Shown here one piece after another: positions 13,252-46,053 of a stretch of 55,716 nt of DNA. Position 1 is the stretch's first letter, and the number at the start of each line of letters is the position of its first letter. The stretch lies in contig JBAYIR010000007.1 of assembly GCA_041665505.1 (NCBI GenBank), positions 1 to 55,716 of the forward strand, read 5' to 3'. The position numbers were made by a program, and so were the translations under genes. This DNA comes from Patescibacteria group bacterium. Its GTDB lineage: Bacteria > Patescibacteriota > Patescibacteriia > UBA1558 > GWA2-36-10. The notes beneath the pieces were generated by a model. That model was not told where the DNA came from, made no database searches, and was given only the letters and a program-made list of their open reading frames with translations.

Positions 13252-13608
13252 TCAGATCCAGTACTTCAGCTCCTGGCGGCTGAACTGTCTGATCTTCGCC
13301 GCCTGACGGCGGGAGATCCCATGTCGCTGAGCGAACTCAGCATTGGTCTCCTGGTCGGGACAGTCAGGACCTGGCGTGAGCTGACGAGCTCTCTGCTGAA
13401 TGGTCTCGAAGCGATGATGCTTGAGAACATCCCAGCTGAACTGAGAGTCGTAGCAGCACTCGCATCCCCAACGCCGGACATTGTAGAAGGTGACCTCCTG
13501 ACACTGCGAACAGGCAGTACTCTCCCAGTAGTAGGGATCATTCATACACCTGTTCAGGTATTCGGTCAGCACGACATGTTCGTAGCTCCAGCGGCGCTCG
13601 GATTCCAT
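13252..13608 (-). CDS. island ORF A1: Cys-rich protein with C-terminal HTH-like segment (118 aa)
   Basis: SD AAGGAG 6 nt before the ATG, with its own promoter and terminator. Motifs CSQC, GCECC and TNAEFAQRHGISRRQAAKIR. Confidence 0.65.
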   Translation of the reverse strand: MESERRWSYEHVVLTEYLNRCMNDPYYWESTACSQCQEVTFYNVRRWGCECCYDSQFSWDVLKHHRFETIQQRARQLTPGPDCPDQETNAEFAQRHGISRRQAAKIRQFSRQELKYWI

Positions 13609-13800
13609 GGTTGGCTCCTTCTGAAGAATGCGTGGTCGAGACCAGCACCTTCAGAAAGGAGAGAGAAGGGGAAGGATGAGACTGAAGGTGCTTCAGATTT
13701 GCACCTAGCCTTAGTGAAATTCCCAGTTCCAAGGCATTTCTGCCTCTCTTTCATTGAAGAACGCACTCCGTCAGAAATACGAATATTTCTGACCCAAAGT
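13609..13800 (-). promoter_or_regulatory. structured GC-rich 5' leader of A1
   Basis: 10-bp hairpin capped by a UUCG loop (13770-13793). An 11-bp long-range stem (13644-13654 / 13682-13692) encloses a CU-rich loop and competes with a local hairpin (13682-13696). Confidence 0.5.
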
Positions 13801-13804
13801 AAAC

Positions 13805-13838
13805 ATTATATACTAACATATTTAAGCTATTTTGTCAA
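13805..13838 (-). promoter_or_regulatory. promoter of A1
   Basis: On the minus strand: TTGACA, 17-nt spacer, TAGTAT with TGn, and an overlapping TATAAT. It shares an identical 22-nt -35/UP segment with 14865-14886. Confidence 0.65.
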
Positions 13839-13851
13839 TGATATTATTTAT

Positions 13852-13887
13852 CTAAAACAAAAAGCCGGTACAATATTTCATGTACCG
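13852..13887 (-). terminator. terminator of the A3-A2 operon
   Basis: Stem cggtaca/tgtaccg followed by a T-run on the minus strand. Confidence 0.6.
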
Positions 13888-13938
13888 ACCAAGATCATCA
13901 CTCGGGGGTGGATGATCAAAACCCTTTGGTCTGGCTCC

Positions 13939-14283
13939 CTACGGAGCCTCGAGATCTTGATGCTCGAAGGGCAGAGCGCCCATTTGCTCCGCGTCCAGGA
14001 AGAACACGGGAAGATGCATCGTAGGCAAGCCGAAGTGTCGACCCGTCAGCTCTCTGGTAACCTCGGCGACCAGAGAGGCGTCCTGGCAGAGAATCAGCAG
14101 CTGGTTGCCCAACTTGAAGTCGGACCACAACCTGTTGTGGGGGATGCTCGTATCCCTCACTTCAACGTTGACAGTCATGCGTTCTCGGAGCTTGAGCACC
14201 TTGATGACCCTCTCGAGAGTCCCGGCTGTTGCGGGGTTGAGGTCAACCGTGCTCAGGTTGAGGTAAAGGATAAATAGGATCAT
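13939..14283 (-). CDS. island ORF A2: hypothetical protein (114 aa)
   Basis: SD GGAAGGAAGGG 3 nt before the ATG. Second gene of the operon. Confidence 0.6.
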   Translation of the reverse strand: MILFILYLNLSTVDLNPATAGTLERVIKVLKLRERMTVNVEVRDTSIPHNRLWSDFKLGNQLLILCQDASLVAEVTRELTGRHFGLPTMHLPVFFLDAEQMGALPFEHQDLEAP

Positions 14284-14343
14284 GTCCCTTCCTTCCGTTT
14301 TGGCCCAAGAAGGACCGTGTGAACGTGCGAGCTCAGGCGAGAG

Positions 14344-14673
14344 TTACTGCTTCTTCTGGAGCTGCTCCAGGCAGTCTTGAATCTCTGCATAAGCATCACG
14401 TTCGTCTTCTGTGACACCTCTCTTATAGAGAAGCATCGTTGATTGGGCTTGTCTTTGCTCGAAGTTTCCACCCTTGAACTCAAAAGTGTATTTACCAGGT
14501 CGAAAAAAAGGAAAGAAAAAATGACCAAAACCACTGCGTACACAGATGATCGTGTACGAATAAGTATCCGTATCGCATTGTTTGAGTACCTGACCATTTT
14601 CACCACAACCAGCCATGGCGACCAGACTGACGGTGAAGACGACGAGCATGAGGATCTGCCAGAACTTGCGCAT
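14344..14673 (-). CDS. island ORF A3: putative lipoprotein (109 aa)
   Basis: Signal peptide ending in a lipobox-like VAMAGC. AGGAAAGAG lies upstream of the ATG. Confidence 0.6.
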   Translation of the reverse strand: MRKFWQILMLVVFTVSLVAMAGCGENGQVLKQCDTDTYSYTIICVRSGFGHFFFPFFRPGKYTFEFKGGNFEQRQAQSTMLLYKRGVTEDERDAYAEIQDCLEQLQKKQ

Positions 14674-14845
14674 TCTCTTCTCACTCTTTCCTTGTTTAGC
14701 AGTTCTTACACTGCCGTGCTTGTGCCAGAACGCAGAATTATCTAGGCACTATACTGGGCTTAAGTTTTTTTAACTTATTCTTAAGCTTTCAATATAGTGG
14801 CTAGATAATATTTTTTTAAAAGAACTTATTTTAAGTTAATGCAGT

Positions 14846-14874
14846 ATTATATAATAAATATACAATTTTGTCAA
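14846..14874 (-). promoter_or_regulatory. consensus promoter of the A3-A2 operon
   Basis: On the minus strand: TTGACA (14869-14874), 17-nt spacer, TATAAT (14846-14851). Confidence 0.7.
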
Positions 14875-14965
14875 TGATATTATTTAATTTAAGTTATAAA
14901 AAATATTAATTTCTATAATCAACATTTTTTGCTATAATACAAGAGTAAAAATTAATAAAAAAATT

Positions 14966-15706
14966 ATGTTATTAGAAAATAAAGTAGCCATTGTCACTGG
15001 TGCAGCCATGGGTATTGGTTTGGGTATTGTCAAAGCACTAGCCAAAGAAAAATGCCAAGTAGTAGTATCTGATATCAAGCTAGCTGACTGTCAAAAAGTA
15101 GTCAAAGAATTAGAAAAACAAGGTGTCAAAGCACTGGCTGTCAAATGTGATGTTAGTAAAAAATCAGAAGTCACCAAGCTATTTCAAGAGACCAAAAAAA
15201 AGCTTGGTCGTTTAGATATATTGGTCAACAATGCCGGTATTTATCCTTTTGTGCCTTTTAGTCAGATGAAAGAAGCTGATTGGGACAAAGTCATGTCAGT
15301 CAATTTGAAAAGTCTTTTCTTTACTTGCCAAGCAGCTACCAATGCTATGTCTAGCGGTGGCCGGATAATCAATATTTCTTCCATTGCTTCAATAGTTGGT
15401 TTTGAAAATTTGGTACACTATTGCGCTTCCAAAGGAGCAGTCAATAGTATGGTCAGAGCCTTAGCTTTAGAGCTTGCCCCCAAAAATATTTTAGTCAACG
15501 CTGTGGCTCCAGGAGCCATTGCTACGCCTGGCGCTAATAAGGGTATGAATGAAGCTAGCCTCAAACAAATGACCGCCGCTATACCACTAGCTCGCGTTGG
15601 TCAGCCGGAAGATATTGCTGGAGCAGTAGTATTTTTGGCTTCAGAATTGTCAAATTATGTAACTGGGCAGACTATTGTGGTGGATGGCGGTTGGACTTTA
15701 CGCTAA
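14966..15706 (+). CDS. short-chain dehydrogenase/reductase (FabG-like)
   Basis: TGAAMGIG Rossmann motif, NNAG and YCASKGAV catalytic motif. Confidence 0.85.
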   Translation: MLLENKVAIVTGAAMGIGLGIVKALAKEKCQVVVSDIKLADCQKVVKELEKQGVKALAVKCDVSKKSEVTKLFQETKKKLGRLDILVNNAGIYPFVPFSQMKEADWDKVMSVNLKSLFFTCQAATNAMSSGGRIINISSIASIVGFENLVHYCASKGAVNSMVRALALELAPKNILVNAVAPGAIATPGANKGMNEASLKQMTAAIPLARVGQPEDIAGAVVFLASELSNYVTGQTIVVDGGWTLR

Positions 15707-15767
15707 AAATTTTAAATAGAAAATATTTTTTGCTTAGCTAGAGGATTTTTTATATCAAAAAAAAGTT

Positions 15768-16418
15768 ATGAAAGATATAATATTATTATTTTTGGCTAGT
15801 CTGATGCTTACAGCCTGCTCACCGGCCAAAAATATAGTTGATAACAATTTGAATATTTTAGATAATACAAACCTAGAAGAATCACCAGTAGAGGATATTG
15901 AAGATGAGTTAGATGTAGTAAAAAAAGAACTGGTTGAGCCAGTGGCTGATTTTAGCACTCGGATTAGCAAAAAACCTTTTGGTATATATATTAGCCCGGA
16001 TAATTCTCCAGTCCAGCCAGAAAAATTCACTGGTTATCACACTGGTGTGGATGTGGAGTATGGTGATTTGGCAGAGGATACAATCCCAGTTTTGGCTATA
16101 GCCGATGGTGAAGTGCTTCGTTCAGCTTGGGTCAGTGGTTATGGTGGTATGTTGGCTATTAGACATCAGATTGAAGGAAAATCTTATATAGTCATCTATG
16201 GTCATCTATCACCAAATAGTTTAGCCAAGTTGGGACAAAAAGTTTCAGCTGGTGATATTATTGGTAATTTGGGTCAAGCTTATAGTCAAGAAACAGCTGG
16301 AGAAAGAAAACATTTACATTTAGCCATTTATACGGGTAGTGATATTAATGTTAAGGGTTATGTGGCCAGACAAAGTGATTTAAGCTTATGGTTAGATCCA
16401 GTAGAATTTTTCAAATAA
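15768..16418 (+). CDS. M23 family metallopeptidase, lipoprotein
   Basis: Lipobox LTAC, plus HTGVDV and GHLS..HLHL LytM-type motifs. Confidence 0.8.
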   Translation: MKDIILLFLASLMLTACSPAKNIVDNNLNILDNTNLEESPVEDIEDELDVVKKELVEPVADFSTRISKKPFGIYISPDNSPVQPEKFTGYHTGVDVEYGDLAEDTIPVLAIADGEVLRSAWVSGYGGMLAIRHQIEGKSYIVIYGHLSPNSLAKLGQKVSAGDIIGNLGQAYSQETAGERKHLHLAIYTGSDINVKGYVARQSDLSLWLDPVEFFK

Positions 16419-16535
16419 TCAAAATTTATCGTTCAAAGAAAAAAAGTGTTAAAATAGTAAGATAGTACTGCTATATTGACCTTAATTATCAATGTAGTAT
16501 AATTAGTGGACTAATATAATTAAACAAAAAAATCT

Positions 16536-17207
16536 ATGAAAAAAACGATAGTTATTGTTGTTCTGGCAATAATATCATTGGGGTCATTGGGCTATATAAT
16601 ATCTAGTAATATGAAATCTGATACTATAAAAGCCACTGAAGTCAAAGATATTGCTGCAAAATTTATTAATGACAATTTGCTTCAGCCAGGTGTCACAGCC
16701 ACTATTGGTGAAGTGACCGAAGAAAATGCTTTGTATAAAGTGCCAGTCAATTTACCTGATGGCAGTAGTGTGGATTCTTATATGAGTACCGATGGTAAAA
16801 TTTTCTTCCCAGAAGGAATGAATATTGAAGAAGTAACTAAACAAATGGCTGACATTAAAGCAAATAACAATCAGAATCAAGGTCAAACACAATTGTTAAC
16901 AGAAGTTGTAACTGAAGGCACTGGTGATGTAGTGGTTGAAAGCGGTGATTCTATTACCGTTGATTACACTGGTACTTTGGAAGATGGCACAGAATTTGAT
17001 TCTAGTGTTGGCAAAACTCCTTTTACTTTCACTATTGGTCAAGGAACAGTTATTCCAGGTTGGGATCAAGGACTCTTGGGCATGAAAGTTGGTGAAGAAA
17101 GAAAATTGATTATTCCATCTGATTTAGCCTATGGTGCTAGTGGCTCTGGTTCTATACCACCAAATGCTACTTTGATTTTTACTGTTAAGTTAATTTCTAT
17201 AAATTAA
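16536..17207 (+). CDS. membrane-anchored FKBP-type peptidyl-prolyl isomerase
   Basis: N-terminal TM helix and a C-terminal FKBP domain (VDYTGTLEDGTEFDSS, GWDQGLLGMKVGE, LIFTVKL). Confidence 0.88.
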   Translation: MKKTIVIVVLAIISLGSLGYIISSNMKSDTIKATEVKDIAAKFINDNLLQPGVTATIGEVTEENALYKVPVNLPDGSSVDSYMSTDGKIFFPEGMNIEEVTKQMADIKANNNQNQGQTQLLTEVVTEGTGDVVVESGDSITVDYTGTLEDGTEFDSSVGKTPFTFTIGQGTVIPGWDQGLLGMKVGEERKLIIPSDLAYGASGSGSIPPNATLIFTVKLISIN

Positions 17208-17222
17208 TAATATTTAAAAAAG

Positions 17223-17250
17223 CACTCGCGTTATCACGTGGGTGTTTTTT
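17223..17250 (+). terminator. terminator of FKBP gene
   Basis: Stem cactcgcg/cgtgggtg with two GU pairs, followed by T6. Confidence 0.55.
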
Positions 17251-17287
17251 GTTTATTTAAATAATTTTTTTTAGAAAAAATAAATGA

Positions 17288-17312
17288 CCGGGGCGCGCTG
17301 CGCGCACCCCGG
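17288..17312 (-). terminator. island B terminator, near-identical to the island A terminator
   Basis: ccgggg-c-gcgc tgc gcgc-a-ccccgg. It has the same C/A mismatch as 13217-13243 and a T-rich tail on the minus strand. Confidence 0.7.
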
Positions 17313-17324
17313 CCGAGCTAGTGG

Positions 17325-17675
17325 CTACTCAGTAGCCATGTCGCTTTCGCTCATGAAGATCTCCAACCGACATCCGTAGATTCGGATGCCGAGCTTCTCG
17401 GCTCTGAGGGCCAAGATGACCAGATCAGCCTCGAGGCGGTCACTGTAGATGATCAACAGGGAGGGTTTGTCCACGGTCGGACCAGACACAGCCTTGTCCA
17501 CGGTCGGACCAGACACAGCCTTGACCACCTGCACATTGTCATGCAGATTGACCTCAGCATCATCCCCCAGTTTAAACTGTTTGATCACCCGCAAGATGGC
17601 ACCGAGGACACGCTTCTTGACGGCCATGGTATCTGTGTCTTTACTACCAAGGCCGTAGACCCCGAACAGGAACAT
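17325..17675 (-). CDS. island ORF B1: hypothetical protein, paralog of the B2 N-terminal domain (116 aa)
   Basis: Start moved to the ATG at 17675, which has SD AAGGAAGGAAG 3 nt upstream. Alignable to B2 (VLGAILRVIKQFKLGDDAEVNL vs VLSVICRVVQELRLRDDAVITL). Confidence 0.6.
   Translation of the reverse strand: MFLFGVYGLGSKDTDTMAVKKRVLGAILRVIKQFKLGDDAEVNLHDNVQVVKAVSGPTVDKAVSGPTVDKPSLLIIYSDRLEADLVILALRAEKLGIRIYGCRLEIFMSESDMATE
17467..17520. repeat. perfect 27-bp tandem duplication inside B1
   Basis: 17467-17493 equals 17494-17520. The duplication is in frame and encodes KAVSGPTVD twice. Confidence 0.9.
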
Positions 17676-17735
17676 TGGCTTCCTTCCTTTCAGAACTCCG
17701 CGATCCAAGCTGTGGAGCACTTGTCTGGGCGATCT

Positions 17736-18227
17736 CTAGAAGTCGAACTCTCCGGCGCCGGAGAGGCTGCTGCCCTCTTCCGGACCATCGATCTCGTCGC
17801 CTCCGTCGTCGTCGAGATGATCGCTCATCTGTCTGGCACTGGGGTCCAAGAGGGAGAGTTGGGGATTCTTTTTCGGACCATCGATCTCGTCGCCTCCGTC
17901 GTCGTCGAGTGGCCGACCCATCTCGCTTGCGCTGAAGAATTTGTTCAGGGCCGGTACTTCCGTGTCGAGCCGGAGGTTGTTCATCTTGAGAGCCAGCAGA
18001 ATGTGGCCCAGGTCGATCGGCTCGGGACAGAAGATCTCGAGGTAGGGTTTGGCCTGCGGTAGGCCAGGAACAGCCTGGAACACCTGGGACGAGAAGAGGG
18101 TGATGACAGCGTCATCTCGGAGGCGCAGTTCTTGAACCACACGGCAGATGACACTGAGCACCCATTCCCTGAGGGTAATGACCTCGATGGTATTGCCACC
18201 GAGACCATGTAGTTTGAAGTTGGGCAC
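17736..18227 (-). CDS. island ORF B2: hypothetical protein with acidic repeat tail (163 aa, GTG start)
   Basis: SD AAGGAAGGAG 5 nt before the GTG at 18227, which is 17 nt after the B3 stop. The C-terminus carries LDDDGGDEIDGP twice. Confidence 0.55.
   Translation of the reverse strand: MPNFKLHGLGGNTIEVITLREWVLSVICRVVQELRLRDDAVITLFSSQVFQAVPGLPQAKPYLEIFCPEPIDLGHILLALKMNNLRLDTEVPALNKFFSASEMGRPLDDDGGDEIDGPKKNPQLSLLDPSARQMSDHLDDDGGDEIDGPEEGSSLSGAGEFDF
17781..17909. repeat. two perfect 36-bp direct repeats inside B2
   Basis: 17781-17816 equals 17874-17909, a 93-nt in-frame offset. Confidence 0.9.
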
Positions 18228-18244
18228 GTCGACTCCTTCCTTGT

Positions 18245-18853
18245 CTAGAACTCCGCGATCCACGCGGTGAACCACTCGTCCGGACGATCGACATTGACCG
18301 TCAGAACGATTTTGCAGGTGCTCAAGTGCTTGAGCGGCGCACAGTTGTAGTACATTCCCAAGAAGATCTGCCGGGAGCTGGTCTCGCTCAGGCGGGTCTC
18401 GTTGAAGACCCCCAGGCGGGATTTTCCCAACTTGATCTGTTGGCGCAGGAGCCCGCTGTCGGACGACTGGTCGGTAGACCATTGGCCGAGGTTGTAGCTC
18501 TGCCAGACCAGACCGCGTCCCAGTGGCAGTGCGAAATCCAGTTCACCGGAAACGAAGCGGATCTTCTCCGCGCCGTCAACCGTGGACCAGGTCGGGCCAG
18601 CACCGACTTCGAACTTGTCGAAGCCGGGCACAGAGGTAGCGTAGCGAATCAGGACGTTCGACTGCTCGCCCGTGACGAACCAAGGATGGATCATCCAGCT
18701 GTCGCTGAGGTAGTAGTCGGCGAAGAACACGATCGGGATGTCGGAGCGGAGCTCCAGTCCGAAGGCATTGTCGCCAGCCATGGCCGGCTGGACGCTGATG
18801 ATGGTGAAGAGCACCAAGGCGAGGAGTAGTGAGTAGATGTTCTTGGAGCGCAT
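18245..18853 (-). CDS. island ORF B3: secreted beta-barrel-like protein ending in Phe (202 aa)
   Basis: SD GGAAGGAAAG, signal peptide ...VQPAMA/GD, alternating beta-strand-like pattern and C-terminal ...FTAWIAEF. Confidence 0.6.
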   Translation of the reverse strand: MRSKNIYSLLLALVLFTIISVQPAMAGDNAFGLELRSDIPIVFFADYYLSDSWMIHPWFVTGEQSNVLIRYATSVPGFDKFEVGAGPTWSTVDGAEKIRFVSGELDFALPLGRGLVWQSYNLGQWSTDQSSDSGLLRQQIKLGKSRLGVFNETRLSETSSRQIFLGMYYNCAPLKHLSTCKIVLTVNVDRPDEWFTAWIAEF

Positions 18854-19019
18854 GACTTTCCTTCCGGTGAGTGGACCTCTTTGGCCTGTTCAAATGTCTT
18901 CTAAGAAGTCACTTGAATTTGGCCGCTTACTTATCTATCGCCAAAGCTTAGCTACAGACGCTGCTTGTTGTCCATTTTTGGACTTGTATAAGGACAAATC
19001 GCACGGATTTTAACATTTT

Positions 19020-19048
19020 AAAGTAACATAGTTTATTGATTTTGTCAA
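19020..19048 (-). promoter_or_regulatory. promoter of the B3-B2-B1 operon
   Basis: On the minus strand: TTGACA, 17-nt spacer, TACTTT with a TGn extension. Confidence 0.5.
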
Positions 19049-19098
19049 TGTAGATAAATATGCTTTATTATTGATTTTATGACTTATACTTGTTTATA

Positions 19099-19127
19099 TT
19101 GACAATTTATATATTTTATGATATAAT
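19099..19127 (+). promoter_or_regulatory. divergent consensus promoter of B4
   Basis: TTGACA, 17-nt spacer, TATAAT (perfect consensus). Confidence 0.7.
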
Positions 19128-19197
19128 AATATATTAAGTTCAGAGTCCCGAGTTGATAAACCGGCCAAGCAATTGGCCTTAGACAGAGGAGATACTC

Positions 19198-19422
19198 ATG
19201 ATCCGTTCACTCAAGACCATTTTCAGCCCTTTCCGGCTGGTCTACGCCGGTGCTTCTCTCTGCCTCTACAACAGAGAGGCACATCGGAGCAAGATGGCCC
19301 AGCTGGCCGAAGGTGAACGCCTCTTCACCGAGGTGCTGGTTGGCGGCTTCATCACCGCCCTGATGGTCATCACCATCGTTTTCGCCAGTCGCTACATCGC
19401 GGCCGGCAGTATCTTGGTCTAG
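19198..19422 (+). CDS. island ORF B4: small protein with C-terminal TM helix (74 aa)
   Basis: SD GAGGAG 6 nt upstream, with its own promoter and terminator. Confidence 0.55.
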   Translation: MIRSLKTIFSPFRLVYAGASLCLYNREAHRSKMAQLAEGERLFTEVLVGGFITALMVITIVFASRYIAAGSILV

Positions 19423-19449
19423 GCCTGGCTCACGAGCTAGACCTGACCG

Positions 19450-19484
19450 GCCCCGGATCTGCGCAGATCCGGGGCTAGTTTTTT
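19450..19484 (+). terminator. island B right-hand terminator
   Basis: 13-bp perfect palindrome gccccggatctgc/gcagatccggggc followed by T6. Confidence 0.75.
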
Positions 19485-19567
19485 GTTTAAGAAAAAGCCA
19501 AAATTATTTTTTGCTTTGTCTATTTTCAAAAAGGGAGTAAAATATACTTATAATTTAAAATAAAGCT

Positions 19568-20557: not shown

Positions 20558-20720
20558 TTATTTTTTATTTTAAATAAATATATTATTTATTTTAAACCCA
20601 AGCGGACAGATCCTTTGGGTTTTTAATTTTTACTGGGTTGACTTTTGGCTTTAAAAGTGGGAAAATTAAGCAATATTTTTAGGCCTTTAGCTAAGAAATT
20701 TAAGTATTTATTATAAAAGT

Positions 20721-22001: not shown

Positions 22002-22003
22002 AT

Positions 22004-39237: not shown

Positions 39238-40388
39238 TGGCTTTAAAAGATAAAATAAAAAATATTCCAGACCAACCTGGTGTTTATAGGTTTTTGGACA
39301 AAACAGGGGAGATTCTTTATATTGGTCGCGCTAGCTCGTTAAAGAAAAGATTGTCTCAATATTTTTTGAAAAATGTTGAAGCCAGAATAGCCGAGATGGT
39401 CTCTCAGGCTAGAGATATAAAATATCAAGAAACAGACACTATACTAGATAGTGTAGTTTTGGAAGCCAATCTAATAAAAAAACACTGGCCAAAATATAAT
39501 GTCAAAGATAAAGATAATCGTTCTTTTATTTATATTGTCATAGCCAAAACAGCTTTTGCCAAACCAATTATAGTCCGTGGTCGTGATTTGCAAAAATTTC
39601 CCAAAAATCAAGTGAATATTTTTGGTCCTTACCAAGCTCAAGCTTTGATAAAAAATGCTTTGCGTATTATCAGACGTATTTTCCCTTATAGCACCTGCCA
39701 AGTTTCATCTGGCCGACCTTGTTTTGATTATCAAGTGGGTCTTTGCCCAGGCGCTTGTGTAGATAAAATCAGTAAAAAAGATTATCAAAATAATATCAAA
39801 AATATTGGTTTATTACTGAGTGGCAAAAAAAAGCAATTGTTAAAAAAATTGCTAGTTGAAAATCCAGAGCAGGCGCGCAGCTTGAAGCATTTGCAGGATG
39901 TCTCACTTATTACCAATGAAGATTCTGTCTTGGGAGGTATCAATAGAATAGAGGGTTATGATATTTCTCATTTAGCTGGTAAAGAAAGTTATGGTGCCAT
40001 GGTAGTTTTTTCCGCTGGCGCGCCGGATAAAGCACAGTATCGTCTTTTCAAAATAAAAGAAGCACCCGCTAGTGATGATTTGCGTGCACTAGTAGAAGTA
40101 TTGTCTCGTCGTTTAAAACATAGCGAGTGGGCTAGGCCAGATCTGATGATGATAGATGGTGGCAAAGCGCAAATTGATTTTATAGATAAATATTTTAAAG
40201 CTAATAATATAAATATTCCGATTGTCGGCATCTCAAAATATAGTGGAGATAAGTTGATCTTCCCTCAGACTACAGCTAAACAGTTCAAAGATTTATCAAC
40301 CAGTATTAAAAATACCTTACTGAAAGTAAGGGATGAAGCGCATCGTTTTGGCAATGCGGCTGGTCGTAGAAAAAGAAGTAAATATTAA
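39237..40388 (+). CDS. uvrC: excinuclease ABC subunit C, short form (383 aa, no C-terminal HhH region)
   Basis: GIY-YIG N-terminus (GVYRF..GEILYIGRA), UVR-like segment, and IEGYDISH...MIDGGKAQ. It ends at ...RDEAHRFGNAAGRRKRSKY. Confidence 0.85.
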   Translation: MALKDKIKNIPDQPGVYRFLDKTGEILYIGRASSLKKRLSQYFLKNVEARIAEMVSQARDIKYQETDTILDSVVLEANLIKKHWPKYNVKDKDNRSFIYIVIAKTAFAKPIIVRGRDLQKFPKNQVNIFGPYQAQALIKNALRIIRRIFPYSTCQVSSGRPCFDYQVGLCPGACVDKISKKDYQNNIKNIGLLLSGKKKQLLKKLLVENPEQARSLKHLQDVSLITNEDSVLGGINRIEGYDISHLAGKESYGAMVVFSAGAPDKAQYRLFKIKEAPASDDLRALVEVLSRRLKHSEWARPDLMMIDGGKAQIDFIDKYFKANNINIPIVGISKYSGDKLIFPQTTAKQFKDLSTSIKNTLLKVRDEAHRFGNAAGRRKRSKY

Positions 40389-40404
40389 TTTTTTTAAAAT
40401 TTGA

Positions 40405-40435
40405 GACCCCGCCACGTTTCTGACGTGGCGGGGTC
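40405..40435. terminator. GC hairpin shared by the convergent uvrC and island D gene
   Basis: gaccccgccacg / cgtggcggggtc, starting 16 nt after the uvrC stop and ending 22 nt after the D1 stop. Confidence 0.65.
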
Positions 40436-40457
40436 CTTGCTTCTGGCTCAGCTGAGC

Positions 40458-40880
40458 CTAGGGATTGGCCGTGGTGGCCGGCTCGGGCCAGACGTGGTAG
40501 CCCAGCTTGAGGCCATCGGGGCCAGCGATCTCGGTCCGGGTCCGGATGGCATTCATGTTGAACACCAGACGACCGTAGATGGTCCGCTGATCTCCCTTGG
40601 GCAGGGCGTTGATCAGGGCACAGGCGTAGGACCAGCGCCGGGCGCTCTCGTGGTCGTGATGGCGTTCCTTGCGCAGACTGCGCAGGGCATCGGTGATGCC
40701 GAAGATATCACCCAGAGCGAGTTCTTCGGACTTGAACCAAGGCTGGTTCAGGATGGTGTGACCCAAGAGGGCCGCACCTTCCTCGTCATCAGGCATGACG
40801 ACAGCCATGTCCTCGAACGGAACGCCGAGGAAGGCGAAGAGGTCCTGGTAGTGATCGATCTTGGCAGCGGGGTGCTTCAT
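40458..40880 (-). CDS. island ORF D1: hypothetical protein (140 aa)
   Basis: SD AGGAG 9 nt upstream, with its own promoter and terminator. Confidence 0.6.
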   Translation of the reverse strand: MKHPAAKIDHYQDLFAFLGVPFEDMAVVMPDDEEGAALLGHTILNQPWFKSEELALGDIFGITDALRSLRKERHHDHESARRWSYACALINALPKGDQRTIYGRLVFNMNAIRTRTEIAGPDGLKLGYHVWPEPATTANP

Positions 40881-41009
40881 GTCAGTTAACTCCTGGCTCT
40901 AGCTTTTGTTTTTTTGCTAGTATTTTTCAACTAGCGCTCCTCCTTGAATCCGACGAATCCTTTCACGGTCTAGGGTGAATGGTGATGGGGGTGAACATAG
41001 AATTAATAT

Positions 41010-41037
41010 AATATAGAACAAAATCACTTTTTTGTCA
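41010..41037 (-). promoter_or_regulatory. promoter of D1
   Basis: On the minus strand: TTGACA, 16-nt spacer, TATATT. Confidence 0.55.
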
Positions 41038-41115
41038 AGCAGATAATTATAGAAAAATTACTGCTATTTTTAATTTTATTAATTTAATCTTAAATTTATG
41101 CTATAATTTATATCT

Positions 41116-41847
41116 ATGAAAAAGAATATAATTTTTATTTTATTTTTATTAGTTTGGCCATTAGTTTCTTTGGCTGAGGATTTAGATACTGATGCTGACG
41201 GCTTGAGTGATGAAAAGGAAATTAATATCTATTTTACCAAGTATGACCAAGCTGATACAGATGCTGATGGCTACAATGATGGCGTGGAAATAAAGGCTGG
41301 TTTTTCTCCACACTATGGAGAAGCTAAAAAACTCATTCAAGTAGATTCAGATAAAGATTATTTAAATGACAAATGGGAGCTAGTGCTTGGCACTGGTTTG
41401 ATGAATCCCGATAGTGATGGAGATTTGTATTTAGACGGCACAGAAGTAGCTGCTAGCTATGATCCTTTGGATAAAGAAACAAAAAAATTAGAAAAAATAA
41501 TAAAAGTAGACATTGCCAAACAAAATTTGTCTTATTATTTTGATAATAAGCTTTTTGATTCTTTCCCAATATCTAGTGGTGTCAGTGGTATGAATACACC
41601 AGAAGGAGAATTCAAAATATTAGACAAAGTGCCAGTCAAACACTATGGTGGTGGAAATTATGATTACCCCAATACTAAGTGGAATTTACACTTTACTACT
41701 CGCACTTACCGTTATTATATCCACGGAGCTTATTGGCACAACAATTTTGGTCACCCTATGAGTCATGGTTGTGTCAATGTGGCTTATGAAAATATGGAGC
41801 ATCTTTATTGGTGGGCTCAGTATGATACCAAAGTAATAATAGATTAA
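41116..41847 (+). CDS. L,D-transpeptidase (YkuD domain) with thrombospondin-type-3-like Ca-binding repeats
   Basis: Signal peptide, DTDADGLSDEKE / DTDADGYNDGVE repeats and the catalytic motif HG...SHGCVN. Confidence 0.85.
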   Translation: MKKNIIFILFLLVWPLVSLAEDLDTDADGLSDEKEINIYFTKYDQADTDADGYNDGVEIKAGFSPHYGEAKKLIQVDSDKDYLNDKWELVLGTGLMNPDSDGDLYLDGTEVAASYDPLDKETKKLEKIIKVDIAKQNLSYYFDNKLFDSFPISSGVSGMNTPEGEFKILDKVPVKHYGGGNYDYPNTKWNLHFTTRTYRYYIHGAYWHNNFGHPMSHGCVNVAYENMEHLYWWAQYDTKVIID

Positions 41848-41897
41848 TTATTGTTGAATAAAAAAATCTCCTTTTTAGGAGGTTTTTTTGTTTGGTG

Positions 41898-42206
41898 TTA
41901 TTTTTTTATTCGTAGTGGCAGGCTCACTTGCTGGCCAAATAAATTTTGGGCGGCTTTTTTGCCACGAGCAGTCAATTTGATTTGAGTAATAAATAATTTA
42001 TATTGAGTTTTTTCACCAAAGCCAGTCAGGAGGCCTTTGTCGATTAATCTTTCTATGCTTTTGGTGATTATATTGGCTCGTATTTTTGTGGAAGGAGGAT
42101 TCTTTTTATTATCATAGAATTTTTCAAAAATATTTCTAGACAACTTAGCTTTGTTATTTTGCAAAGTAGTTTTTAAAATATATTTTTGTAATTCTGATAA
42201 GTTCAT
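41898..42206 (-). CDS. hypothetical small basic protein, winged-helix-like
   Basis: 102 aa and basic. No firm motif. Confidence 0.4.
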   Translation of the reverse strand: MNLSELQKYILKTTLQNNKAKLSRNIFEKFYDNKKNPPSTKIRANIITKSIERLIDKGLLTGFGEKTQYKLFITQIKLTARGKKAAQNLFGQQVSLPLRIKK

Positions 42207-42219
42207 AATTATTTCATTA

Positions 42220-42447
42220 TTATACCAGGGCTGTTTTTTTTAGCTTTTGACCAAAATCACTCTTGTTCCAAAGCCTCTCGTGTAGGTAATACAATATAGC
42301 TTTGATTATTTGTAATATTATAGCTTCTAGCAAACTAGTTTTCCAGTCTTTATTTAATATAGTGAGGGTTATAAAAGTCAAAGATAGGGCCAAAATAAAC
42401 CAAGTGCTTGATTTTAAAATACTACGAGAATGGAGTTCATGAAACAT
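42220..42447 (-). CDS. DUF2061-like small membrane protein
   Basis: RSILKSSTW...LHERLWNK pattern. Confidence 0.45.
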   Translation of the reverse strand: MFHELHSRSILKSSTWFILALSLTFITLTILNKDWKTSLLEAIILQIIKAILYYLHERLWNKSDFGQKLKKTALV

Positions 42448-42467
42448 ATTTTTTTATTTAATAGCTA

Positions 42468-42477
42468 GGGGGGGGGG
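42468..42477. repeat. homopolymeric G10 (C10 on the coding strand) tract
   Basis: Ten consecutive G residues, 21-30 nt upstream of the ATG at 42447 on the minus strand. Confidence 0.9.
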
Positions 42478-42508
42478 ATATTTAAAAGCGATAATAGATG
42501 TATAAATT

Positions 42509-42721
42509 TTATACTAGTTTATTTATGGTGTAGTGTGTCAGGCTGATAATAGCAGCGCCTACTATTATTGATAAACTAAAACTCAAGGGTGGATTATTAG
42601 GACTTAGATAAATATCTAATAGTCCCCAAATGCCACGCCATAAACAGACCACTCCAATTAAAATTACAAAACTAAAAAATAATTGGTGATGTTTTTTTAA
42701 ATTTGCAAGTTTTTTGATCAT
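42509..42721 (-). CDS. hypothetical 2-TM membrane protein
   Basis: 70 aa with two hydrophobic helices. Confidence 0.4.
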   Translation of the reverse strand: MIKKLANLKKHHQLFFSFVILIGVVCLWRGIWGLLDIYLSPNNPPLSFSLSIIVGAAIISLTHYTINKLV

Positions 42722-42810
42722 AATCTTTTATTTCCAGTACTTATATTATAGGGGTATTTGCCATTTTTAGCAAAATAGATTATAATAATTTTACTTTAAA
42801 ATTGAATAAT

Positions 42811-42973
42811 TTATCAAGAGAGCGGGGAGAGAATTGGCTCTATAATCCGCCAGCAACCCACTTACGCATCGCTTTTAGCGAGGAGCGAAGTAGGGTGCTA
42901 AGTCCAACCCTTAATTAAGGCAGGGAAAGATGATAAAATCATTATTACTTTCTCTGTTCGGGAAAGTTTTTTT
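42811..42973 (+). promoter_or_regulatory. SAM-I (S-box) riboswitch with terminator
   Basis: TTATCAAGAGAG..GGGGAGAGAATTGGCTCTATAATCCGCCAGCAACC...GGTGCTAAGTCCA...GAAAGATGATAA, then stem actttc/gaaagt plus T7 (42947-42973). It lies directly upstream of metK. Confidence 0.85.
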
Positions 42974-42997
42974 ATTAATTAATCATAATAAAAATAT

Positions 42998-44008
42998 ATG
43001 TTAAAAACTGCAGAAAATGTAACTTTTGGTCATCCAGACAAAGTTTGTGATCAGATCTCGGATGCTATTTTAGATGAGTGTTTACGTCAAGATCCAAATA
43101 CCAGAGCTGGTATTGAAGTAGTAGGTGGGCATGGTCAATTATTTATTACCGGTGAGGTGAGTACCAAGGCTGATTTTGATGCTGCTCAAATAGCTAGAGA
43201 TTTATATAAAGAAATTGGTTATCAGGAAGAATTAAAAATAATGGTCAATATTGTCAGACAAAGTCCGGATATTGCTAGAGGAGTAGATACTGGTGGAGCT
43301 GGTGATCAAGGTATTATGGTTGGCTATGCTACTAGTGAGACTGAAGAATTATTACCTCGTGAGCATGTTTTGGCCAATAAGTTGGCTAGAAAATTGGAAG
43401 AAGTCAGACTTAAAGGCGAAACTGATTTAGCCAAAGTACTAATGCCAGATGGCAAATCTCAAGTTACTTTGGATAATGGTACTGTAGATACAGTAGTAGT
43501 CTCTACTCAACACAAAGAGGGCGTTGATCAAAATCAACTGAGAGAATGGATCATCAGTGAAGTGGTTAAACCTATCATACCTGAGTATAAAAAGATATTT
43601 ATTAACCCCACTGGCTCTTTTGTCCAGGGTGGCTTTGAGGCAGATGCTGGATTAACTGGTCGGAAAATAATTGTGGATAACTATGGTCCACAAATACCAG
43701 TGGGTGGTGGTTGCTACAGTGGTAAAGATGCTACCAAAGTTGACCGTTCAGCTGCTTTTATGGCTCGTTATTTAGCGGTAAAATATCTTAAGGAATATAA
43801 TGCCAAAGAAGTATTGGTTAAATTAGCCTATGCTATTGGTGAACCACAACCAGTCATGGCTACAGCCTTAGTTGACGGACAATCCGTTGAAATTAAAGGT
43901 TATGATTTGTCTCCAAAAGGTATTATTGACAAACTTAATTTGAGAAAACCACAATATAGAGATAGAGCTAGGTATGGTTATTTTGTTGCTTTTGATGTTA
44001 AAGAATAA
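42998..44008 (+). CDS. metK: S-adenosylmethionine synthetase (compact, 336 aa)
   Basis: GHPDKVCDQISDAILD, GAGDQGIM and GGGCYSGKDATKVDRS motifs. Confidence 0.9.
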   Translation: MLKTAENVTFGHPDKVCDQISDAILDECLRQDPNTRAGIEVVGGHGQLFITGEVSTKADFDAAQIARDLYKEIGYQEELKIMVNIVRQSPDIARGVDTGGAGDQGIMVGYATSETEELLPREHVLANKLARKLEEVRLKGETDLAKVLMPDGKSQVTLDNGTVDTVVVSTQHKEGVDQNQLREWIISEVVKPIIPEYKKIFINPTGSFVQGGFEADAGLTGRKIIVDNYGPQIPVGGGCYSGKDATKVDRSAAFMARYLAVKYLKEYNAKEVLVKLAYAIGEPQPVMATALVDGQSVEIKGYDLSPKGIIDKLNLRKPQYRDRARYGYFVAFDVKE

Positions 44009-44012
44009 GTCC

Positions 44013-44041
44013 TTGACTAATACTAAGCGCATTGATATTAT
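44013..44041 (+). promoter_or_regulatory. island E cassette 1 promoter
   Basis: TTGACT, 17-nt spacer, TATTAT with TGn. Confidence 0.6.
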
Positions 44042-44050
44042 AAATATAAT

Positions 44051-44119
44051 ATGAATAAACAGATAGAACAATCAAATTTTTTAAAGGTTTATTTTATTAT
44101 TGGTCGTTTGACGACTTAG
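44051..44119 (+). CDS. leader mini-ORF 1 (22 codons)
   Basis: The ATG lies 9 nt after the -10 box. Encodes MNKQIEQSNFLKVYFIIGRLTT. The TAG stop sits just 3' of hairpin gtcgt/acgac, which is followed by a T-run. Confidence 0.35.
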   Translation: MNKQIEQSNFLKVYFIIGRLTT

Positions 44120-44154
44120 TTTTTGCGTATATTTTATAATATAAACAAAGATTA

Positions 44155-44178
44155 GGTCGCCTCAAGCGACCTTTTTTT
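44155..44178 (+). terminator. leader terminator 1
   Basis: Stem ggtcgc/gcgacc followed by T7. Confidence 0.65.
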
Positions 44179-44239
44179 GATGGAGTTCATTACACACGCC
44201 AAGCCAAGTCAAAACTAGCCTTTAGGAAAGGGGTCTGAA

Positions 44240-44431
44240 ATGGTCAGATTTCGACATCCTAGTGGCACCGGATTCATAGATGTCTGTTACTGTCGCCCCT
44301 GTTTGAATTGTGATTACGATCACTGTCTGCATCGTCAAGATGCTGACGCTTCTCTCAAGGAAGAACAGCCAGACACGAAAAATGTCTTAGACAAGGAAGG
44401 AGGAAATCCAACAGAAGCGGATCTTCACTAG
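44240..44431 (+). CDS. island ORF E1: Cys-rich small protein (63 aa)
   Basis: SD AGGAAAGGGG. Motif CYCRPCLNCDYDHC. Confidence 0.55.
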   Translation: MVRFRHPSGTGFIDVCYCRPCLNCDYDHCLHRQDADASLKEEQPDTKNVLDKEGGNPTEADLH

Positions 44432-44461
44432 TGGGGAAAACAAAACCAAGGATGGTTAGCC

Positions 44462-44683
44462 ATGCAGCAAGTTAGTTCTGTGATCTCAGGAAAAGACTGC
44501 TGTGCCTGTGTTGGCCCGGCTTCCCGTGACCATGGTCATGATATCTTTTCCTGCGAAAACCACGAATGCGTGGTGGTGGCTCAGACCGTGGCTAATAGGT
44601 TTGTGGCTTCTCTGCGCGGAGACATGCAGAGCGAGTTGGCTCTTGATCTGGATCAGTTTCCTGATATCGGCCGTAGGCTTTAG
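44462..44683 (+). CDS. island ORF E2: Cys-rich small protein (73 aa)
   Basis: SD AAGGATGG. Motifs DCCAC and SCENHEC. Confidence 0.55.
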   Translation: MQQVSSVISGKDCCACVGPASRDHGHDIFSCENHECVVVAQTVANRFVASLRGDMQSELALDLDQFPDIGRRL

Positions 44684-44708
44684 GCTTTTCGGCTGTCGGC
44701 ATTGGTTA

Positions 44709-44740
44709 GTCGCGGACATTCCTTCGGGAATGTCCGCGAC
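44709..44740 (+). terminator. 14-bp GC hairpin with UUCG loop ending cassette 1
   Basis: gtcgcggacattcc ttcg ggaatgtccgcgac. The T-tail is weak. Confidence 0.5.
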
Positions 44741-44756
44741 CTCAAATTCATATAGT

Positions 44757-44784
44757 TTGACTAATTTTTGAAAAATGATAATAT
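44757..44784 (+). promoter_or_regulatory. island E cassette 2 promoter
   Basis: TTGACT, 16-nt spacer, TAATAT with TGn. Confidence 0.6.
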
Positions 44785-44791
44785 ATTTAAT

Positions 44792-44866
44792 ATGCAAGAT
44801 ATAAACAGACAATTGAATCAAAATTATTTTGGTTTTTACTTTTTCTTTAGTCGTCAGGCGACTTAG
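44792..44866 (+). CDS. leader mini-ORF 2 (24 codons)
   Basis: The ATG lies 7 nt after the -10 box, so the mRNA is probably leaderless. Encodes MQDINRQLNQNYFGFYFFFSRQAT. The TAG stop sits just 3' of hairpin agtcg/cgact, which is followed by a T-run. Confidence 0.35.
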   Translation: MQDINRQLNQNYFGFYFFFSRQAT

Positions 44867-44910
44867 TTTTTTGCATATATATTTATTAAAATAAATTGAG
44901 CATAGAAGCA

Positions 44911-44936
44911 AGTCGCCAAGCAGGCGGCTTTTTTTG
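44911..44936 (+). terminator. leader terminator 2
   Basis: Stem agtcgcc/ggcggct followed by T7. Confidence 0.65.
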
Positions 44937-45009
44937 ATAGTTCTTTCCATCTTTTCTTTCTGGATTCTTCTCTTGGTGTCAGCGTTCACCTACAAACGGA
45001 GGAAATCTC

Positions 45010-45144
45010 ATGAAGCACAAGCCAGACCTTAAGACCAGAGACCAAGCAGCTGGCCAGACCAAGCCTTCCAAAGAGGCTATAGCAGAGTTTGCCCGTCTGG
45101 TGGCCGAGCAACTGGCTAGCAGCCGGCATGGCTGCGGCATGTGA
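45010..45144 (+). CDS. island ORF E3: small protein (44 aa, not in ORF track)
   Basis: SD GGAGGA 7 nt upstream. Encodes MKHKPDLKTRDQAAGQTKPSKEAIAEFARLVAEQLASSRHGCGM. Confidence 0.5.
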   Translation: MKHKPDLKTRDQAAGQTKPSKEAIAEFARLVAEQLASSRHGCGM

Positions 45145-45169
45145 GTCTAACCAGACATCAATCGGGGGT

Positions 45170-45201
45170 GTGCCCGCAACATTAGCTAATGTTGCGGGCA
45201 C
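45170..45201 (+). terminator. 14-bp GC hairpin ending cassette 2
   Basis: gtgcccgcaacatt agct aatgttgcgggcac. Confidence 0.55.
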
Positions 45202-45207
45202 TTCTAT

Positions 45208-45236
45208 TTGACAGTCAAAATTTTTTATGATATTAT
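45208..45236 (+). promoter_or_regulatory. island E cassette 3 promoter
   Basis: TTGACA, 17-nt spacer, TATTAT with TGn. Confidence 0.6.
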
Positions 45237-45255
45237 TTTTTTATAAAAATTCAAT

Positions 45256-45306
45256 ATGTTTAGGAGTTTAATTATCATTATCAGCATTATTTTGTTAACG
45301 CCCTAG
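45256..45306 (+). CDS. leader mini-ORF 3 (16 codons)
   Basis: Encodes MFRSLIIIISIILLTP. The TAG stop lies inside hairpin cgcc/ggcg, which is followed by a T-run. Confidence 0.3.
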   Translation: MFRSLIIIISIILLTP

Positions 45307-45359
45307 GCGATCAGATTTTTGTTGCTAGTAATAATTTAACTTCCAAACATCAAAAATGA

Positions 45360-45388
45360 ATCGCCCAGCTGGCGGTTTTTCTTTTTTG
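45360..45388 (+). terminator. leader terminator 3
   Basis: Stem atcgcc/ggcggt followed by a ttttcttttttgg tail. Confidence 0.6.
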
Positions 45389-45492
45389 GAGAAAGTACAT
45401 TATCAATTCTATGCTTGTTTGACTGGAATTTCAGTTTCTGGGTCTAGCCTGAGAGTGAGTGTCGTCTACACCAGCACAAGGAGGCTTTCCTG

Positions 45493-45738
45493 ATGGACCA
45501 GATGCATTCAGACAGATACCAGCCCAAGAAAGGGCCGGCATTGATTCCGATTGTCAAGAAGGTTCTTCAGCGTATCTACGCTGAAGAGGATTTGGGAGGA
45601 GTCGACCCCATCCGCTCGGCGGAAAACGAATCCCTGATTGCCTTCTACCTGCGGCAGAACTGCCGCTGTCCGGCTGACAGCCAGTGGTGCATGTGCGGTG
45701 GAGGTTTCACTGTGTCTGACGGAAGGCGGAGCCCTTAG
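45493..45738 (+). CDS. island ORF E4: Cys-rich small protein (81 aa)
   Basis: SD AAGGAGG 8 nt upstream. Motifs NCRC and WCMC. Confidence 0.6.
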   Translation: MDQMHSDRYQPKKGPALIPIVKKVLQRIYAEEDLGGVDPIRSAENESLIAFYLRQNCRCPADSQWCMCGGGFTVSDGRRSP

Positions 45739-45759
45739 TCAAGCTTCAAGGAGGAAGAG

Positions 45760-46053
45760 GTGTTTCAGGAGGATGAGAGGCCTAAGAGGCCTCAAGATTT
45801 GCCCAAAGGGTTGTGGCGCTGCCAGTACTGTGAACAGGAGTTTTGTACTCCACTTAGTTGTTTGGAGAGGCTCAGAGCCCTTCACTCAGAAAGAGAGCGA
45901 GAAATGAAGGATCGAGACGAGCAAAAGGTGGCTAGCGACCAAGAACAGCCGCCAACTGAGAAGCCTCAGGCTCCCAGTGTTTGTGCTGAATGTCAGTGCC
46001 CTGACCGTCAGCATGGTCGTGAATGTTCTTACCATATTGCGGTCATCATCTGA
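45760..46053 (+). CDS. island ORF E5: Cys-rich small protein (97 aa, GTG start)
   Basis: SD AAGGAGGA 4-5 nt upstream. Motifs CQYC..FC..SC and CAECQC. Confidence 0.55.
   Translation: MFQEDERPKRPQDLPKGLWRCQYCEQEFCTPLSCLERLRALHSEREREMKDRDEQKVASDQEQPPTEKPQAPSVCAECQCPDRQHGRECSYHIAVII

Follow-up and report, generated by a model that had tools for sequence, protein, structure and literature searches.

Do all genes of a very small bacterial genome recruit the ribosome by the same signal? The question is raised by contig JBAYIR010000007.1 of assembly GCA_041665505.1, a stretch of 55,716 nt (hereafter the window, which is one whole contig) in which small GC-rich islands of open reading frames (ORFs) lie within an AT-rich backbone of host genes. 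The organism is a groundwater relative of Candidatus Komeilibacteria in the Candidate Phyla Radiation (CPR)/Patescibacteria; its DnaK is 88% identical to that of the metagenome-assembled genome Candidatus Komeilibacteria RIFOXYD1_FULL_37_29. The genome, also metagenome-assembled, comprises 1,039,308 bases (1.04 Mb) in 16 contigs with 35% GC and an estimated completeness of 98%. An earlier note on this DNA had claimed that every island ORF carries a strong Shine–Dalgarno (SD) sequence and that the host genes largely have none. Below, G000 denotes the genome under study, G001 and G005 genomes of the same genus, and G003 and G041 other genomes used for comparison.

Two gene classes with different start signals

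The GC content of the window is mostly 30–40%, with five blocks at 50–62% located at approximately 13.2–14.8, 17.3–19.5, 32.6–33.1, 40.4–41.0 and 44.2–46.1 kb; by the same criterion, about 4% of the 300-nt windows of the genome are GC-rich. These blocks contain 14 of the approximately 85 GC-rich cassette genes of the genome, where a cassette is a unit of one or a few ORFs that has a promoter and a terminator of its own. The G+C content at third codon positions (GC3) is 0.39–0.83 in the island ORFs of the window and 0.16–0.37 in its backbone ORFs. All 14 island ORFs are in frame with one stop and begin with ATG (12 ORFs) or GTG (two ORFs). The backbone includes dnaK, dnaJ, eno, gpmI, pyk, uvrB, hup, mgtE, an OLD-family gene and an EamA transporter gene, and for these ten names a Pfam match was obtained. 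In addition to GC3 and the SD, the island class is set apart by its stop codons (TAG 54% and TGA 32%, versus TAA 80% in the backbone), by the base preceding the start codon (C versus T), by long leaders and by GC-rich terminators.

Within the window, a purine-rich site pairing to ACCUCCUUU was found at positions -20 to -3 of all 14 island ORFs, with predicted duplex free energies from -5.2 to -11.2 kcal/mol that reach -6.3 kcal/mol or lower in 13 of them. The weakest site, AAGGAAAG, lies 12 nt upstream of the ORF at 14344-14673. With the threshold set at -4.5 kcal/mol, only one of the 50 backbone ORFs has an SD-like site, namely the OLD-family gene at 50968, where AGAGGATG is placed too far upstream; the remaining starts follow AT-rich sequence such as aaataaaaaaatATG. 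The difference between 14/14 and 1/50 is highly significant (Fisher's exact test, p = 3e-13), and both claims of the earlier note thus hold in the window.

For the genome-wide scan, which had been set beforehand as the refuting test, ORFs were called with two separate codon models, trained to the AT-rich backbone and to GC-rich genes, respectively. This gave 945 ORFs for the backbone and 116 candidates for the GC-rich class, of which 86 scored well. The resulting counts are approximate, as the automated calling mis-framed the ORF region at 32633-33049 and missed those at 17736-18227 and 45760-46053; the ORFs of the window were curated manually. At the threshold of -4.5 kcal/mol, the first ATG was preceded by an SD in 73% of the 86 island ORFs, compared with 23% at GC-matched internal positions of the same ORFs (p = 1e-18). 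Among 880 backbone ORFs the frequency was 6%, which is below their own control at random in-frame internal positions (14%). The excess in the islands also survived a control in which the best of all possible starts was compared with an equal number of random positions at a threshold of -8 kcal/mol (60% versus 16% in the islands, 7% versus 8% in the backbone). The observation withstood the refuting test, since SDs are much rarer in host genes than in the islands. The distance from the SD core to the start codon is 5–9 nt in 51 of 67 island ORFs, and the commonest forms are AGGAGG, AAGGAGG and GGAGGT.

SD use is a step function of GC3. Its frequency is 5–8% in the four large bins at or below 0.35, 14% in a bin of 14 genes at 0.35–0.42, and 67–79% in every bin above 0.42. 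Only about 20 genes have an intermediate GC3, and no gradient of SD use was observed inside either class. Of the 55 strong SDs in the genome, 44 precede island genes, though the islands provide only 9% of the ORFs. The genome therefore contains two discrete gene classes. G001 shows the same split, with an SD in 7% of its backbone ORFs and in 64–65% of its GC3-high ORFs.

An origin of this pattern in chimeric assembly or mis-called ORFs is hardly credible. The genome is indeed metagenome-assembled and fragmented into 16 contigs, and the small ORFs of island 5 are independently backed only by homologues in G001. However, contigs of independent sequencing runs, produced in three other studies, bridge the host-island junctions; the arrangement is therefore natural DNA and a chimeric assembly is ruled out. 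A similar architecture is present in several related genomes and in metagenome contigs of the Joint Genome Institute (JGI), and the called island frames show clear GC3 periodicity.

Promoters, leaders and the retained anti-Shine–Dalgarno sequence

The islands appear to be transcribed from promoters of the host type, as the earlier note had proposed. Consensus sigma-70-type promoters, TTGACA-17-TATAAT with 12 of 12 matches, were found at 14874-14846 (minus strand) and 19099-19127 (plus strand) in short AT-rich stretches, and the TG-extended -10 boxes of the islands match those of the backbone. The transcripts of the two classes would differ mainly downstream of the promoter. Across the genome, the interval between -10 box and start codon of backbone genes has a local peak at 6–10 nt, which we read as leaderless mRNAs, and a broad group at 20–50 nt. 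The leaderless host start at 12298 suggested previously was re-derived from its -10 box, which ends 6 nt before the ATG, and the mRNA of this EamA gene is probably leaderless. Island leaders are 33 to 214 nt long. The region from -35 to +35 has a predicted folding energy of -14.2 kcal/mol in the islands versus -5.5 kcal/mol in the backbone, both weaker than in gene interiors.

It has been described previously that SD-less mRNAs can be translated where secondary structure is locally absent (Scharff et al. 2011, PMC3121790). The present genome is similar to that system in that its SD-less backbone starts are weakly folded and its folded starts are accompanied by an SD. Unlike the continuum seen there in ordinary genomes, the two modes are split here between two compositionally discrete classes.

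We consider the following reading to be the best account of these data, with a probability of roughly 0.55: SD-led cassettes and the SD-less backbone recruit ribosomes differently, and the SDs of the cassettes are needed, selected, and used by a retained anti-SD sequence. Backbone genes, like those of the whole order, would initiate without SD pairing at AT-rich, G-depleted and weakly folded starts, and they could have dispensed with such pairing because their leaders are AT-rich and unstructured, or else short or absent. Cassette genes would be transcribed from host-type promoters into long, GC-rich and strongly folded leaders. Such mRNAs presumably cannot offer an unstructured A/U-rich landing site and would depend on SD/anti-SD pairing at the canonical distance, for which the ribosome would keep a canonical, usable anti-SD. 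The SDs may have come with the cassettes, and selection would retain them since the cassette mRNAs need them.

General hiding of the SD by leader hairpins was considered as well and is unsupported, as the mean unpaired probability of the SD in predicted leader folds is 0.38, versus 0.37 in shuffled leaders. Two individual leaders have peculiar features. In the leader of I1a (13609-13735, minus strand), a pyrimidine tract, CUCUCCUUUCUGAAG, pairs with the leader's own SD, CUUCAGAAGGAG, in a hairpin fold of -52 kcal/mol (z = -3.6), so that this leader, by its predicted fold, looks like an SD-sequestering riboregulator, a feature that is not general among island leaders. The leader of I4 (40881-41003, minus strand) has an additional AGGAGGA some 60 nt ahead of the true SD, followed by a TTG-initiated frame of 14 codons whose stop overlaps the true SD; these elements may represent an upstream ORF or a decoy site.

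The ribosomal counterpart of the SD was examined in relatives. All six full 16S rRNA genes compared, which belong to the same genus and family, have the canonical anti-SD GGATCACCTCCTTTCT at their end, and the genus and family thus retain GGAUCACCUCCUUUCU. The genome encodes bS21 and a four-domain bS1. The rpsU gene, which encodes bS21, is preceded by an extended SD (GGAGGTGAT / acGGAGGTGAttttGTG) whose pairing energy with the full 16S tail, -20.7 kcal/mol, is surpassed by only one other SD of the genome. All 28 genomes examined, which represent seven families of the order, have a strong SD before rpsU; it has the form (A/G)G(G/A)GGTG(A), lies at 4–8 nt and mostly precedes a GTG start. Because this very strong SD is conserved in all 28 genomes, SD/anti-SD pairing is likely to be in use in the lineage. 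The backbones of the order are otherwise SD-poor, with frequencies of 2–8% in five genomes of the family and 12–17% in two other families. In the partial genomes compared, conservation of the SDs on the PNPase (polynucleotide phosphorylase) gene, tuf and other backbone genes does not extend past the genus. Inspection of prfB revealed no programmed frameshift site containing an internal SD, and hence this gene adds no test of anti-SD function. The island SDs have a median energy of -10.7 and a best value of -16.9 kcal/mol against the full 16S tail. Whether the host ribosome uses them had been left open by the earlier note; the anti-SD of the congeners and the conservation of the rpsU SD answer this in part, and the island SDs look functional.

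Three AT-rich backbone genes also have extended SDs similar to that of rpsU (GAGGAGGTGA, AAAGGGGGTGA and AAAGGGGGTAGA), with energies from -18 to -22 kcal/mol against the full tail. These are G000 C1:6855-7244, C9:11892-12245 and C9:34699-34947, which encode a pilin-like, a secreted and a small membrane protein.

In a part of the Parcubacteria, the anti-SD has been lost or has decayed (Tsurumaki et al. 2022, PMC9297842). The present organism is likewise a CPR bacterium with little SD use; however, its family retains the canonical anti-SD, which would be used for rpsU and, by inference, for the cassettes.

A further parallel is provided by the Bacteroidia (Jha et al. 2021, PMC7797042; McNutt et al. 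2023, PMC9976891; PMC13000453), which share with this genome a backbone nearly free of SDs despite a canonical anti-SD, A-rich upstream regions, and a very strong, extended and conserved rpsU SD of about -20 kcal/mol. In Flavobacteriia, bS21, bS18 and bS6 together keep the anti-SD sequestered, and rpsU is translated by those ribosomes that lack bS21 (PMC7797042, PMC9976891); depletion of bS21 raises the translation of strong-SD reporters only (PMC9976891). By analogy, the anti-SD could be occluded here with the help of bS21, and a sub-population of ribosomes lacking bS21 would read the SD-led mRNAs, making the cassettes a translational regulon tied to bS21 occupancy, beside rpsU autoregulation. 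The SD-poor backbone alongside a canonical anti-SD would fit this gating, as would the energy of the rpsU SD and its presence in all 28 genomes of seven families, which is the Flavobacteriia signature (PMC7797042). Throughout the order, bS21 also ends in an acidic motif, (D/E)YLK(K/R)IGKL(D/E), whose conserved Tyr may or may not correspond to Tyr54 of Bacteroidia; the alignment of our bS21 to the F. johnsoniae chain of 7JIL covers residues 1-43 only. The pocket residues known from Bacteroidia (Tyr54 and a less basic C-terminus in bS21; Phe50, Asn56 and Lys37 in bS18; Trp100 and Arg103 in bS6) could not be aligned in this lineage, which belongs to the CPR and not to the Bacteroidota. Unlike in Bacteroidia, the favoured upstream bases are A at -5/-6 and T at -1, and there is a second class of about 85 genes whose SDs are of ordinary strength and canonically spaced, an argument for the use of such SDs by the bulk ribosome. 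In F. johnsoniae the effect requires an extended SD (PMC9976891), whereas the island SDs are ordinary. Moreover, a GC-rich class is missing from most of the genera that show the rpsU signature. On balance, gating of this kind is doubtful.

A broader version, which we regard as slightly more doubtful still, would make the cassettes a separate translational regulon with the anti-SD accessible in only some of the ribosomes, such as those without bS21 in certain growth or attachment states. The approximately 85 accessory genes, mostly for secreted, membrane or Cys-rich proteins, would be switched on jointly at initiation, and an island-borne CsrA could add a second layer of control.

The csrA gene is itself a GC-rich, SD-led cassette gene (G000 C6:13514-13702, G001 C1:276464-276619 and G041 C3:77668-77823), and the GGA sites of the islands could in principle serve mainly for the binding of CsrA and not of ribosomes, with the island class as its regulon. 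The leader of csrA contains two GGA motifs about 18 nt apart, a doubled GGA occurs in several SDs of the window (AAGGAAGGA), and csrA exceeds the Pfam cut-off in only four of 61 genomes of the order, including the island-rich G000 and G001. However, a second GGA is not in excess in island leaders (0.47 versus 0.59 per window of the coding-sequence control), G005 has islands and no csrA was found in it, and both the 5–9 nt spacing and the GGAGG cores are traits of ribosome-binding sites. As control by CsrA would supplement the use of SDs and not substitute for it, we regard this explanation as very unlikely.

Persistence and origin of the cassettes

Homologues of the window islands were found at matching sites in related genomes. 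The I2c-I2b pair adjoins the FKBP gene in three JGI metagenome contigs (L218-L220) with a GC content of 53–59%, where I2c and I2b show 61% and 42% identity compared with 82% for FKBP. In these contigs, the AAGGA core is kept at an unchanged distance from the ATG, and the remaining leader differs. A homologue of I2c in G001 has a GGAGG SD and a TTGACA promoter. In G005, an orthologue of I4 with 30% protein identity and the SD AAGGAG occupies the same site between uvrC and an L,D-transpeptidase-like gene. At the site of island 5, G001 has homologues of I5a and I5e with AGGAGG SDs. Overall, island orthologues show 30–61% identity versus 70–85% for the flanking proteins. The persistence of both SDs and high GC in these diverged orthologues suggests that the signals are maintained and look selected. 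In a strain about 7% diverged, obtained from a sequencing run, islands and backbone differ by similar amounts, which fits vertical co-inheritance over short times.

The earlier note had proposed that the island genes keep the initiation signals of their donor. That the islands form a separate class of composition and signals was supported; the retention of donor signals was not. Searches of Pfam, protein libraries and viral sequences identified no donor lineage. None of the ten window island proteins searched matched a Pfam family. Relatives of the window island proteins come only from related metagenomes: seven relatives of I2c were found among 5.8 billion clustered proteins, and the I4 family has seven representatives among 1.84 billion. 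No relatives of I2c or I4 were found among the viral contigs searched with these two proteins. Elsewhere in the genome, eight of the 20 largest GC-rich island proteins have Pfam domains, namely PKD/LVIVD with a type IX secretion system (T9SS) sorting tail, B12-radical SAM enzyme, DAO oxidoreductase, HD, ClpP, histidine phosphatase, DUF218 and UbiA. The first of these is encoded by G000 C3:95244-97442 (L178) and joins PKD and LVIVD repeats to a C-terminal sorting domain of the T9SS type (Por_Secre_tail); this domain, typical of Bacteroidota and the FCB group, points to one possible donor lineage.

Compared with the usual traits of genomic islands, the cassettes have an atypical composition (GC3 0.5–0.83 versus 0.25) and a patchy presence among relatives. 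The window islands consist of small ORFs without Pfam matches, in which no mobility genes were seen; no tRNA lies at an island border in the window, and no border repeats were seen there, although no systematic repeat search was made. Instead of a named donor or gradual amelioration, we found few relatives and a bimodal GC3 with few intermediates.

The cassettes also resemble morons, the autonomous promoter-ORF-terminator cassettes of phages. As in morons, the island units have their own promoter and terminator and an atypical composition, lie between unrelated genes and vary among relatives. In contrast to morons, they are located among housekeeping genes of the dnaK type and not in a prophage, have no viral relatives that we could find for I2c or I4, and keep their GC richness and SDs across species.

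According to a simpler explanation, the SDs are only a legacy of the donor: the islands would have been imported recently, or would be imported again and again, from a GC-rich and SD-using pool that has escaped sampling (for instance a mobile element, or the bacterium on which this episymbiont lives), and their SDs would be unselected. This is consistent with a composition, stop-codon usage and start context unlike those of the host, with the low identities of the putative orthologues relative to their flanks, with the didermal-type domains of some island proteins (for example, T9SS sorting), and with the patchy, island-borne csrA. The GC-rich class is moreover abundant only in this genus among the genera sampled; in about 100 kb sampled from each of four other genera of the family, the backbones are SD-poor and there is almost no GC-rich class. 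On the other hand, neither mobility genes nor repeats were seen at the island borders of the window, where no systematic repeat search was made, and I2c and I4 had no viral matches. Diverged orthologues keep the core of the SD and its place, at the canonical spacing, while the remainder of their leaders no longer aligns, and the similar divergence of islands and backbone in the 7%-diverged strain suggests vertical co-inheritance. A perfect host-type AT-rich promoter on each cassette implies long adaptation to the host, and the gradient expected from amelioration is absent. A donor legacy thus explains the origin and patchiness of the cassettes and fails to explain the conserved SD position and the scarcity of intermediates. 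We consider it unlikely as the sole explanation, and the proposal that the SDs are donor relics was not upheld.

Several observations count against the preferred reading, in which the cassette SDs are needed and selected. The site of island 5 is empty (137–145 bp) in G003 and G005, and the site upstream of mgtE in G001 has other GC-rich, SD-led small ORFs with no detectable similarity; both would fit repeated import from an unseen SD-using pool and also favour a donor legacy. Among the island genes, SD strength does not follow GC3 or the folding of the start region. Two genera of the family have backbones with 41% GC (GC3 0.42) and yet lack SDs; therefore, composition alone does not dictate SD use. 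The role of mRNA structure as the reason why cassettes would need an SD is suggested by a correlation of predicted folds, and the persistent high GC of the cassettes is not accounted for by any of the readings. Finally, the 16S gene is absent from the 16 contigs of this assembly, and relatives were used in its place.

Cassette inventory and implications

The features of the window are listed in Table 1. By inspection, several of the island products are small Cys-rich proteins (I1a, I3 and I5a-e).

Table 1. Coordinates of the island cassettes, their genes and two backbone features in the window
Feature	Coordinates	Strand	Description
Backbone	1..55716		50 AT-rich ORFs; starts G-depleted, A-rich at -5/-6, T-rich at -1; SD-like site in 1/50
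Leaderless example	12263..12300	+	ATGACA 12263-12268, 17-nt spacer, TG-extended TAATAT 12286-12291, 6 nt, ATG 12298; EamA transporter gene; probably leaderless, no SD
Island 1	13217..14874	-	Three GC-rich SD-led ORFs; promoters 13838-13810, 14874-14846; terminator hairpins 13243-13217, 13890-13863
I1a	13252-13608	-	SD 13615-13621; Cys-rich
I1b	13939-14283	-	SD 14286-14296
I1c	14344-14673	-	SD 14686-14693; lipoprotein-like signal peptide by inspection
Island 2	17286..19476		Minus-strand terminator 17314-17286; divergent plus-strand consensus promoter 19099-19127, terminator 19449-19476
I2a	17325-17675	-	SD 17679-17689; paralogue of I2b
I2b	17736-18227	-	GTG start; SD 18233-18242
I2c	18245-18853	-	SD 18856-18865; signal peptide, beta-rich, ends in Phe
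I2d	19198-19422	+	SD 19186-19191; small membrane protein by inspection
Island 3	32600..33062	+	Promoter-like TTGACA-17-TGTAAT 32600-32628; SD GGGAGG within 32661-32671; terminator hairpin 33035-33062
I3	32675-32989	+	Cys-rich, 104 aa
Island 4	40403..41038	-	Promoter TTGACA-17-TATATT 41038-41010; leader about 125 nt; SD AGGAG 40890-40894; terminator hairpin 40435-40403
I4	40458-40880	-	140 aa
Island 5	44224..46106	+	Five small SD-led ORFs, mostly Cys-rich; terminator hairpins 44709-44740, 45170-45201, 46080-46106
I5a	44240-44431	+	SD-led
I5b	44462-44683	+	SD-led
I5c	45010-45144	+	SD-led
I5d	45493-45738	+	SD-led
I5e	45760-46053	+	GTG start; SD-led

Several additional features were observed within and around the islands. 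Islands 1 and 2 share a near-identical GC-rich terminator hairpin of 27–29 nt (GCCGGGGTGCGC...GCGCCCCGGC; 13217-13243 and 17286-17314), of which only these two copies exist genome-wide, and a 20-nt promoter motif, AATAATATCATTGACAAAAT, is present twice in island 1. The paralogy of I2a and I2b is in their N-terminal halves, and both genes have internal direct repeats, which in I2a take the form of a tandem duplication of 27 nt near 17463-17520 and in I2b that of an acidic repeat of about 36 nt, present twice near 17776-17910. The signal peptide, beta-rich sequence and C-terminal Phe of I2c resemble those of outer-membrane beta-barrels, which would be unexpected for a lineage thought to be single-membraned. 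In island 5, the region 44010-45495 contains three copies of a unit composed of a host-type promoter, an AT-rich SD-less mini-ORF, two terminator-like hairpins with T-runs, and a GC-rich SD-led ORF. The mini-ORFs, with ATGs near 44052, 44793 and 45257, encode hydrophobic peptides of 16–24 aa, and the repeated unit may represent an attenuator-like leader or separate tiny genes.

An identity of the islands with known structured RNAs was ruled out by an Rfam scan, in which none of the islands matched an RNA family. The only matches were two tRNAs and an S-adenosylmethionine (SAM) riboswitch (RF00162, 59 bits) at 42808-42936 on the plus strand, upstream of a gene for a 336-aa protein at 42998-44008.

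A search of the literature accessible to us did not find a paper describing these cassettes. New in the present analysis are the control-matched genome-wide quantification of SD use, its step function of GC3, the inspection of congeneric 16S genes for the anti-SD, the profile of backbone starts with short leaders or none, the rpsU signature seen across the order in these genomes, and the cross-species conservation of SDs starting from the window islands.

Bacterial genomes are usually treated as having one prevailing mode of ribosome recruitment, whereas two are seen here, sharply split by compositional class and across species. If the anti-SD is gated by bS21, which we consider doubtful, the cassettes would constitute the first large bacterial regulon controlled by ribosome composition. 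If the cassette SDs are functional, two start models would be required for gene calling and expression prediction in CPR genomes, and the cassettes would provide a natural test of the SD as compensation for structured mRNA. Functional cassette SDs would also explain why an SD-poor lineage has kept an intact anti-SD.

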